A DNA stretch of 20,829 nt from Promethearchaeota archaeon (GTDB taxonomy: Archaea > Asgardarchaeota > Lokiarchaeia > Sigyniarchaeales > SOKP01): NCBI GenBank assembly GCA_048938855.1, contig JBHLLT010000037.1, forward strand, positions 1-20,829. The letters are read 5' to 3'. Below the pieces are notes generated by a model. That model was not told the DNA's origin, did not search any database, and was given only the letters and a program-made list of their open reading frames with translations. This document shows, piece by piece, positions 15,648 through 19,737 of the stretch. The first letter of the stretch is position 1. Each line of letters starts with the position of its first letter. Made by a program: the position numbers and the translations under genes.

Positions 15648-17528
15648 GTGGAAAATCAAAATAATCTTGAAAGATTCAAGGAATTCATTGAATATCTTGA
15701 TAAAGTTCTAAAAACTAATAATTTTAAAGAAATTTCTAAGTTCTTTCCTTTAATCGAGAGATTCGAACAATTGTTTTTAAGTGGATATGACAAACGGAAG
15801 AAAGAGGGTACATTTTATACAAGTAAAAGCATATCTGATTTTATTGTTAATGAAGTATTGTTGTGTTTAATTGATAAGAACATAAATAAGGACACTCAAA
15901 ATATCAAGTTAATTCAGAATTTAGATAATATCCTAAAATCTAATCAAGATAACAAGCAAGAGATCATAGATTTATTGTTAAATAGCACAATTTGCGATCC
16001 AGCGTGTGGTTCAGGTGGTTTTCTCTTAAGTGCTGCTAATAGTATTTATAATACTATTATCAAATTGAATTGTCAATTACCAGATATTCAGATTAAGAAA
16101 CATATATTATCAAATTTATATGGATTTGATATAAATGAATACCCAATTAAATTATGCATTTTAAGACTTTTAAGATGGTTTAATTATGAGAATAAATCAG
16201 AACTTGAAGAAATAATTTCAACTTTAAAATCAAATTTGAAAATACAAAATAGTATAATCAATGCTAAATTTCCGCACTTTGACATCATAGTTGGTAATCC
16301 CCCTTATGGGAATATATTAAATCAAAAAGAAAAAGAATTTCTTAAAAAAGAGAGTATTTTCTTTAAAGATATTTATTGTACTTTCCTAATAAAAGCTTTA
16401 GAATGGAGTAATCAAGTTATCGGGTTTTTAGTTCCAAAAAGTTTTCTCCTAAGGCAAAGTTATATTCGTTTTAGAAATAATTTCCTTTCAAAAGCAAATA
16501 TTTTAAAAATATTTGATATTGGCTCAAAAATTTTTAAGAGAGCTACAAATGAAGTTCAAATTATAATTTATGAAAAAAATGAGTTTCCTGAACGAGATTT
16601 AACCATTTACGATTATCCTAACATGAAGATAATTACATATCCGAAGCAAACTGTAGATTCTTTAAGAATTTGTTTTAATTTAGAATGTCCATTATGTCTA
16701 AAATCTAAAAAGTTATACGCATATACTTATAAGAATATATGTCCATATTGTAAAACAAATACAACCAAATTAAATAGGATTAGAATTAAACCAACAAAGC
16801 AAATATTAGATTTAATAGAAAAAATTGAAACAAAGGGAGATTTAAATTATTTAAATCCTGTAGATTTCCCAAAAATGATTAGAGGCGAAGAAGAGATTGG
16901 TTTAGAGACAGTTAAGAGAAATTTATTAAAAGACACGAGCGGTTCTTGCTATTTTATAAGTGCTAGAAATGATTTCAGTTATTATTCCTTCAACAAAAAT
17001 AAATCTTTCAACATTGAAGCTTTAGATCCAAAAATCTTGAAAGGAAATGAATTTGAATATTATATAAAACCGAAATTATTAATAAAACACAATAATATAA
17101 TCCCAGAAGCGATTTTTACAAATGAGAAGGTTTGTTTTACATCATCAATTTATTCATTGCTTCATAAGGATATTAATGAATTAAAGTATTTATGCGCTAT
17201 TCTCAATTCAATCTTAATTCAATTTTATTGTATTTATGCAATCAACAATCAAAAAGATACAACTATTAATTTAAACCAATATATGATTAGACATTTACCT
17301 ATTATCAAACTTAATGATGAAATTAAAAATAAGATCGTAAGTAAAGTTGAAATAATTGATTTATTATTGCTGAAGAATCGTAAAACCACTTCAGATAAAT
17401 ATTATCAGGAATTAAGAGAAATTGATGATACATTTTTTAAATTATATTCAATAACCAGTAAAGAAGCAAATCTGATTATTTCAAAAACCAAAAATCAAAT
17501 TAAACATTTTGAATCTATTTATAAGTAA
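15648..17528 (+). CDS. N6-adenine DNA methyltransferase, gamma class (Eco57I/TaqI-like) with C-terminal target-recognition domain
   Basis: GTFYT motif X, DPACGSG motif I, YGFDIN, FDIIVGNPPY motif IV, TaqI-C-like YLCAILNS..I.FY...LPI; GTG start. Confidence 0.9.
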   Translation: MENQNNLERFKEFIEYLDKVLKTNNFKEISKFFPLIERFEQLFLSGYDKRKKEGTFYTSKSISDFIVNEVLLCLIDKNINKDTQNIKLIQNLDNILKSNQDNKQEIIDLLLNSTICDPACGSGGFLLSAANSIYNTIIKLNCQLPDIQIKKHILSNLYGFDINEYPIKLCILRLLRWFNYENKSELEEIISTLKSNLKIQNSIINAKFPHFDIIVGNPPYGNILNQKEKEFLKKESIFFKDIYCTFLIKALEWSNQVIGFLVPKSFLLRQSYIRFRNNFLSKANILKIFDIGSKIFKRATNEVQIIIYEKNEFPERDLTIYDYPNMKIITYPKQTVDSLRICFNLECPLCLKSKKLYAYTYKNICPYCKTNTTKLNRIRIKPTKQILDLIEKIETKGDLNYLNPVDFPKMIRGEEEIGLETVKRNLLKDTSGSCYFISARNDFSYYSFNKNKSFNIEALDPKILKGNEFEYYIKPKLLIKHNNIIPEAIFTNEKVCFTSSIYSLLHKDINELKYLCAILNSILIQFYCIYAINNQKDTTINLNQYMIRHLPIIKLNDEIKNKIVSKVEIIDLLLLKNRKTTSDKYYQELREIDDTFFKLYSITSKEANLIISKTKNQIKHFESIYK

Positions 17529-19250: not shown

Positions 19251-19341
19251 AAATTTTCGAATAATTAATAATCAAATACGAATTTACAAAAATTACTTTA
19301 TTAGAACCTGAAAGAGAAAAAGAAGGAAAAAATAAAAGAAA

Positions 19342-19531
19342 TTAATCTTTTTTTCTTAAAATTGAACTTAATTCAGTTTTGAGTAAGTCTCGTATTGCTA
19401 CGCGAATTACTTCAGAACGATTGGGATATAGGTTCATATTAACCAATTCTTCTATACCTGTCAAATAAGTTCTGAAAAGATTGAAGATGTTTCAACTTTT
19501 CTTCAGGTATATGGCAGGTAATTAACTTCAT
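19342..19531 (-). CDS. Ribbon-helix-helix (CopG/CdrS-like) transcriptional regulator, split: join(19531..19501, 19469..19342), 52 aa; absent from the ORF track
   Basis: Joined translation MKLITCHIPEAYLTGIEELVNMNLYPNRSEVIRVAIRDLLKTELSSILRKKD has the RHH beta-strand plus the YPNRSE.IR.AIRDLL signature. AGGGG SD upstream. Unspliced reading stops after 30 aa. Confidence 0.85.
19470..19500 (-). other. Putative 31-nt bulge-helix-bulge (tRNA-splicing-endonuclease-type) mRNA intron
   Basis: Central 4-bp helix CUGA/UCAG, 3-nt bulges AGA and AAC on opposite strands, intron hairpin AAAGUUGAA/UUCAA(U)CUUU, in-register exon-exon helix ending UACCUG/CAGGUA. Cutting after the 2nd bulge nucleotides restores the frame. 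Confidence 0.75.
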
Positions 19532-19737
19532 TTTTTTATAAACCCCTTTTTATATCACGTTGTATTGTTTTTTTTGTTATACTTTACACACTATGAAAAG
19601 TAAATATATGAGTATAATACAACGATAATATATGTAAAATATAACCATTGTAATCAGACTTCTTCGTGAAATGGGACACAAAAAAGGATCCCACTAATTT
19701 ACTCGTATCCTTCTGAAATTTAGAAGACTTTATTTTT

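Follow-up and report, generated by a model that had tools for sequence, protein, structure and literature searches.

The stretch of DNA analyzed here, which we call the window (20,829 nucleotides [nt]; contig JBHLLT010000037.1 of assembly GCA_048938855.1), comes from a Loki-type Promethearchaeia archaeon and carries on its minus strand a gene for a 52-amino-acid (aa) ribbon-helix-helix (RHH) protein that is interrupted by a 31-nt insert at 19500-19470. Read from position 19531, the minus strand runs through ten codons, then the insert, and then the remainder of the RHH gene. An initial annotation of this DNA had described two out-of-frame halves separated by an intron of the bulge-helix-bulge (BHB) type, and re-reading the strand reproduced its sequence, its coordinates, and the shift of frame. 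Excision of the 31 nt opens a frame of 52 codons containing H-I-P-E-A-Y-L, the spliced product that had been proposed, with P-E-A-Y as in intron-less orthologues, and without excision the RHH reading frame ends after 30 aa, again as predicted. The positions of all features are collected in Table 1.

Table 1. Features of the interrupted RHH gene and inserts in the same-genus genome G228
Feature	Position	Strand	Evidence or remark
Exon 1	19501..19531	-	ATG plus nine codons (RHH beta-ribbon, last = Pro-Glu) plus first base of Ala codon
Intron, BHB, frame-shifting, 31 nt	19470..19500	-	Fold, frame, contigs of three studies
Exon 2	19342..19469	-	Remaining Ala codon bases, helices A and B, C-terminal tail, TAA
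Central helix, exon strand CUGA	19503..19506	-	Register test
Central helix, intron strand UCAG	19472..19475	-	Register test
5' bulge AGA	19500..19502	-	Predicted cut between 19501 and 19500
3' bulge AAC	19469..19471	-	Predicted cut between 19470 and 19469
Inner intron hairpin	19476..19499	-	9 bp, one bulged U, 5-nt loop
Outer exon-exon helix, exon 1 arm	19507..19520	-	Duplex energy, fold
Outer exon-exon helix, exon 2 arm	19455..19468	-	Duplex energy, fold
Ribosome-binding-like site, purine-rich AGGGG	19543..19547	-	11 nt upstream of ATG; kept across genus; putative function
T-rich tract, probable archaeal terminator	19310..19341	-	3' of stop; putative function, from sequence
Elf1 insert, inside zinc-ribbon Cys motif	G228 C18, L209:1815-1846	-	32 nt
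FAD_binding_4 oxidoreductase insert	G228 C2, L168:1153-1184	+	32 nt

The gene is highly conserved, with exon 2 orthologues within the genus 88 to 100% identical. Exon 2 alone scores 22.4 bits against Pfam RHH_1 (PF01402), above the cutoff of 20.5, and because this match begins only at profile position 13, exon 1 probably supplies the DNA-reading strand of the protein. The best NCBIfam match is CdrS (NF058555) over residues 1 to 43, computed with the intron-less orthologue of genome G156 (one substitution and the last residue differ) against a haloarchaeal model; the resemblance to CdrS-type division regulators noted in the initial annotation is therefore real (E value of 2e-10), but the score of 40.5 bits falls below the family cutoff of 100. 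A sequence search of the PDB returned a weak match to NikR (E value of 0.34). CdrS was characterized by its synteny with ftsZ2 (PMC7439475). The FtsZ-family genes of this genome lie at C31:22100 and C49:136581, and none of its five RHH copies adjoins either, which confirms the annotated absence of an adjacent ftsZ; the genes neighboring this RHH gene vary among relatives. Like CdrS of haloarchaea (PMC7439475) and aCcr1 of Sulfolobales, the protein is a stand-alone RHH of about 50 aa, but it differs from CdrS in scoring below the cutoff, in lying away from ftsZ-family genes, and in being one of five paralogues. We consider it CdrS-like, with a putative role in division. Elsewhere in the window, positions 15648 to 17528 (+) encode a 626-aa DNA methyltransferase of the Eco57I/N6 type with a TaqI-like C-terminal domain.

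Fold of the insert and its flanking exons

Every element of the annotated BHB geometry was recovered in this copy, including the 9-bp inner stem. The central helix CUGA/UCAG has four of four Watson-Crick pairs and lies between the 3-nt bulges AGA and AAC on opposite strands, and the outer exon-exon helix has one C.U mismatch adjoining the bulge. Among seven registers tested, only the annotated one gave a full central helix; the runner-up had two of four pairs, and register 0, which would yield Thr at the joint, was rejected with one of four. Cutting behind the second base of each bulge is the established biochemical rule for the tRNA splicing endonuclease EndA. The cDNAs of the archaeal cbf5 gene agree with this rule (PMC2738675).

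None of 1,000 shuffles of the intron equalled both the central helix and the hairpin energy of the real insert. The exon duplex of this gene has an energy of -9.9 kcal/mol, with a P value of 0.03 against synonymous recoding. Folded free of constraints, the 96-nt region has unexceptional stability (z of -1.5, 12 of 200 shuffles), and the exact BHB fold, at -15.1 kcal/mol, lies 2.4 kcal/mol above the minimum of -17.5 kcal/mol.

Recurrence at one codon and selection on the fold

A pattern search of 400 genomes of the phylum recovered 13 real insert-bearing genes in 12 Asgard genomes, along with five chance matches, and four additional distinct copies on metagenome contigs bring the set to 17 distinct inserts at this codon, each 30 to 40 nt long and located behind the Pro-Glu codons. 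Nine of the 12 genomes fall within the family and three within the Thorarchaeia family, one of the 12 having two tandem paralogues with differing inserts. Among 60 family orthologues that were read directly, 55 lack the insert, mostly reading P-E-A-Y at its position, and 5 carry one immediately behind Pro-Glu. The pattern matches L074, L075, L085, L086, and L088, as well as L095, L096, L099, L100, and L101 (a set that includes a Bathyarchaeia record), were rejected as chance matches rather than introns. A search tolerating up to 6 mismatches found no other site resembling the insert in this genome, tRNA introns included, and the insert matched no family in Rfam.

All 17 inserts block read-through, 10 by frameshift and 7 by an in-frame stop, and in all 17 the BHB is placed so that cutting at its bulges would recover the family protein. 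Four of four central-helix pairs form in 11 copies and three of four in the remaining 6. The joint frequency of helix and hairpin in shuffled sequences was at most 1/1,000 for each insert, a value that, like the rank and recoding P values, overstates significance because the insert-bearing sequences are kin. Base changes follow the pairing scheme: at the Pro codon, the wobble base and the intron base it pairs with vary in concert (C-G in 10 copies, U-A in 5), and five of the seven inner-hairpin pairs have two-sided changes across copies. Over 18 pairs, 80% of alignment cells are paired in the BHB register compared to 28 to 46% in slid registers, and with kinship ignored there are 22 cells with two-sided changes compared to 8.8 in shuffled alignments and no more than 10 when the registers are slid. 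The search for inserts at the same codon proposed in the initial annotation thus produced the covarying BHB pairs it had anticipated, and this recurrence and covariation exclude the strain-specific insert of no structural conservation that it had named as the contrary case.

The exons bear the imprint of the fold as well. The 13 intron-bearing Promethearchaeia genes have a mean exon-exon duplex energy of -11.4 kcal/mol, compared to -5.4 kcal/mol in the 37 genes that lack the intron, and the two distributions do not overlap; no comparable gap appeared in other exon 2 windows. In 13 of 13 intron-bearing genes the duplex beats synonymous recoding (P values of 0.005 to 0.05, subject to the same kinship), compared to 0 of 4 intron-less controls. 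The spliced exons differ from those of G192 by 15 synonymous and 0 nonsynonymous codons in 44, and from those of G171, a member of the same genus, by 24 synonymous and 0 nonsynonymous codons in 44, indicating that the exons are under purifying selection. Since the G192 insert is homologous, this selection on the protein persisted once the intron was in place.

The intron of the window is related to the inserts of G192, G344, G109, and G375 and to metagenome inserts, and one hairpin is common to most Promethearchaeia inserts, whereas by sequence L106 and the Thorarchaeia inserts seem to be unrelated. Relative to the other 16 copies, that of the window has its predicted cut 1 nt farther downstream, and its helix is shifted accordingly, formed by CUGA/UCAG where G192 has CCUG/UAGG, which suggests that the intron slid while its structure compensated. 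A gene tree of 132 columns implies 8 to 9 changes of intron state, at least 4 of them forced by supported branches, with too few columns to separate gain from loss. The intron-less G204 gene (L040) is the sister of the intron-bearing G109 gene (L036) and retains an exon duplex of -7.9 kcal/mol, the strongest of the intron-less set, which together suggest a recent, precise loss of the intron in G204.

Several further observations concern the relatives themselves. Tandem RHH pairs occur in genomes of the Thorarchaeia family (L063, L064, L070, L090/L094); in G397 both tandem genes carry an insert, with differing sequences, and in G134 only the first does. Degenerate or truncated second RHH copies lie near the intact gene in G195, G261, G144, and G138 (L010:1501, L037, L041, L043). 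Many orthologues (L019, L023-L035, L038, L039, L042, L046-L048, L050-L052, L055, L077) have ATA or ATT at the expected start codon, usually behind a GGTG site, which suggests non-AUG initiation. The genome G233 is of the Thorarchaeia-type family, yet the RHH gene and leader on one of its contigs (L018, G233:C125) resemble those of the window's genus, and this contig is possibly bin contamination.

Inserts in other coding genes

Against 1.98 Mb of G228, a genome of the same genus, we called inserts in this genome by protein homology only, ignoring the motif. This census covered about half of the genes, so the three inserts found in this genome are a lower bound. Eight disruptive, high-gain candidates emerged, three of them sharply bounded and with a BHB; the RHH gene had the top BHB score. 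The other two are 30 nt each. The insert in the AMP phosphorylase gene (C74:52205; L210:1177-1206, minus strand) interrupts the K-H-S-T-G-G motif within its Thr codon, and the same site carries inserts in 36 of 135 family genomes. The insert in cdhC, which encodes the acetyl-CoA synthase beta subunit (C49:457983; L211:955-984, minus strand), has three of four central-helix pairs and a related counterpart in G192. Profile matches of the exons abut in both cases, spanning positions 6 to 165 and then 167 to 483 in AMP phosphorylase and 26 to 323 and then 325 to 463 in cdhC. The reverse comparison returned two BHB-like inserts in G228 (Table 1), neither of which is present in this genome. Of the in-frame indels used as controls, 1 of 40 and 0 of 23 passed the BHB test. 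A homology-free de novo scan for BHB motifs across the genome was set aside; its 36,743 motifs were not discriminating, and a coding filter lost the known positive.

Among the five intron sites found, exon 1 ends in purine-AA in four, three of these being GAA, suggesting a preferred insertion context. We take the RHH intron to be one of a class of putative BHB micro-introns of approximately 30 to 40 nt that Promethearchaeia and Thorarchaeia carry in their coding genes.

Probable splicing, its alternatives, and known systems

The genome encodes two EndA-family genes, on C93 and C34, and the ligase RtcB, on C81, and by eye the EndA-family subunit on C93 has Tyr, His, and Lys at the triad positions. 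Very probably, EndA cleaves the RHH pre-mRNA in both bulges and RtcB seals the exons, and this core reading of the initial annotation, a coding-sequence BHB intron processed by EndA and RtcB in an Asgard host, is strongly supported by the inserts at the same codon, the covariation, and the independent assemblies. We infer the following course from sequence: the gene would be transcribed as a pre-mRNA whose region of codons 2 to 18 folds into the BHB, the tRNA splicing endonuclease would cut each 3-nt bulge behind its second base, and RtcB would ligate the exons into a mature mRNA for the 52-aa CdrS-like DNA-binding protein, while unspliced RNA would give the 30-aa peptide devoid of the RHH helices. 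The exact spliced junction did not occur in JGI metagenome contigs, and no RNA run appeared among the sequencing runs listed as containing this stretch; neither outcome speaks for or against splicing. The central-helix mismatches of 6 of the 17 copies and the loose inner helices of 3 would require a relaxed enzyme. Asgard EndA is reported to be of the two-subunit type, with the loop that is associated with a relaxed recognition of the BHB (PMC5829648).

A more elaborate form of this splicing, in which it acts as a regulated switch like that of XBP1 or HAC1 through condition-dependent EndA or RtcB activity or through RNA refolding, is a minor possibility. It would explain why the same codon has been hit in two classes and, by different sequences, in each of the tandem paralogues of G397. 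The BHB of this copy does compete with a slightly more stable fold; a negative-regulator role was also proposed for the cbf5 intron (PMC2738675). Most orthologues, however, work intron-less, a distribution that argues against a conserved switch, and the housekeeping genes AMP phosphorylase and cdhC carry the same type of intron in this genome. The purine-AA ends of exon 1 offer another explanation for the repeated hits, namely, a favored insertion context. That condition-dependent splicing gates the amount of a cell-cycle-type regulator, and that the same codon was repeatedly colonized for this reason, thus seems improbable, although if it were true it would represent an archaeal forerunner, in logic, of XBP1 and HAC1, built atop routine EndA splicing of many Asgard mRNAs. 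Most likely the intron is spliced constitutively and tolerated rather than serving as a dedicated switch.

The comparison to XBP1 and HAC1 in the initial annotation holds in its chemistry, in that an endonuclease and RtcB would restore the frame, but not in regulation, given the 55 of 60 intron-less orthologues and the housekeeping genes with introns of this type. The XBP1 intron is short and frame-shifting, and its exons are joined by RtcB. Splicing of XBP1, HAC1, and bZIP60 is mediated by IRE1 (PMC13149111), and a passage in PMC8718801 links RtcB to XBP1. The likeness would lie in the nonspliceosomal removal of an intron from a transcription factor mRNA; IRE1, in contrast, cuts two stem-loops and is activated by stress, whereas the RHH gene combines a BHB with a housekeeping endonuclease and carries no sign of a signal input. 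A test for IRE1-type sites found no pair of stem-loops, and both splice sites lie in the bulges of one BHB.

Far less probable is that the insert is a small hairpin element that kills the gene and stays unspliced, leaving a pseudogene covered by the four other RHH paralogues of the genome. Its patchy distribution (5 of the 60 family orthologues viewed) and the direct repeats of 3 to 4 nt at the joints of many copies would fit such an element, but this copy has no direct repeat and the genome has no second copy of the insert. A dead gene would also leave unexplained why carriers of the homologous insert differ by 0 amino acid changes compared to 15 to 24 synonymous ones, why the insert structure pairs with exon bases, and why an insert in the active site of AMP phosphorylase has been retained in 36 genomes.

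Slightly less probable still is translational bypassing or frameshifting, in which the ribosome skips the insert at the hairpin and the RNA stays uncut. A Glu codon precedes the resuming codon in 11 of the 17 copies, matching the Glu take-off codon, and a hairpin lies 3' of the take-off site in all of them; the matching landing codon is nevertheless absent from six copies, including this one, and the match follows from the BHB itself, whose helix ends in G next to an AA bulge. Bypassing would leave the wobble covariation unexplained, as well as the exon-exon helix and the re-registered helix. It also sits poorly with the inserts of AMP phosphorylase and cdhC, each of which falls within a codon, and plain frameshifting is ruled out by the in-frame stops of seven copies.

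An assembly or binning artefact, conceivable for a metagenome bin with 7% contamination and listed for checking in the initial annotation, is refuted as far as contigs can show, since other species carry homologous inserts and contigs from runs of three studies, one of which is possibly the source study of this genome, cross the insert over 562, 294, and 198 nt with 0, 2, and 3 differences, respectively. A loose end in run X2 proved to be the G192 insert.

With splicing by EndA and RtcB as the preferred reading, the closest known case is cbf5. Watanabe in 2002 and Yoshinari in 2006 are said to have described its pre-mRNA intron. The cbf5 gene of Sulfolobales and Desulfurococcales is the established example of a BHB intron in a coding region, with cDNA support (Yokobori 2009, PMC2738675), and a 2020 paper named it as the only earlier archaeal mRNA with such an intron (Schwarz 2020, PMC7714728); in the literature we searched, it is the only other archaeal gene for which coding-region BHB splicing is confirmed. 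The two share a short BHB intron within the coding sequence, cut sites between the second and third bulge bases, removal that is needed for a working protein, a host with two-subunit EndA, and a patchy distribution through loss. They differ in that the RHH intron resides in a transcription factor gene of an Asgard host that has several such introns per genome, in that unrelated inserts occupy one codon in two classes with one copy shifted by 1 nt, and in that cbf5 splicing is seen in cDNA while the Asgard intron is known here from DNA. In Haloferax volcanii, HVO_1309 has a BHB intron in its 5' untranslated region (Schwarz 2020, PMC7714728); it too is an mRNA substrate of the tRNA splicing endonuclease, but in a euryarchaeal host and in a region where no frame is restored.

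No report of BHB introns in Asgard coding genes was found in the literature searched, which was largely without subscription journals. The locus suggests that the closest prokaryotic relatives of eukaryotes splice several protein-coding mRNAs, including that of a transcription factor, via the tRNA machinery, which bears on the origin of enzyme-cut mRNA introns and of RtcB-dependent mRNA splicing. The locus also offers a compact test system: a single codon with 17 naturally occurring variants, gain and loss of the intron, and a 1-nt slide. In practical terms, this implies that Asgard annotations miscall intact genes (e.g., cdhC, AMP phosphorylase, and Elf1) as broken.

Repeated independent gains of tRNA introns have been described in Asgard lineages (bioRxiv 10.64898/2026.10.13.758758). 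They involve the same motif and enzyme, but the preprint covers tRNA genes only and its text does not contain the term "mRNA." Several tRNAs of the present genome (e.g., Gln, Asn, and Phe) appear to have introns that ARAGORN placed oddly or miscalled, in agreement with that preprint's account of missed Asgard tRNA introns.
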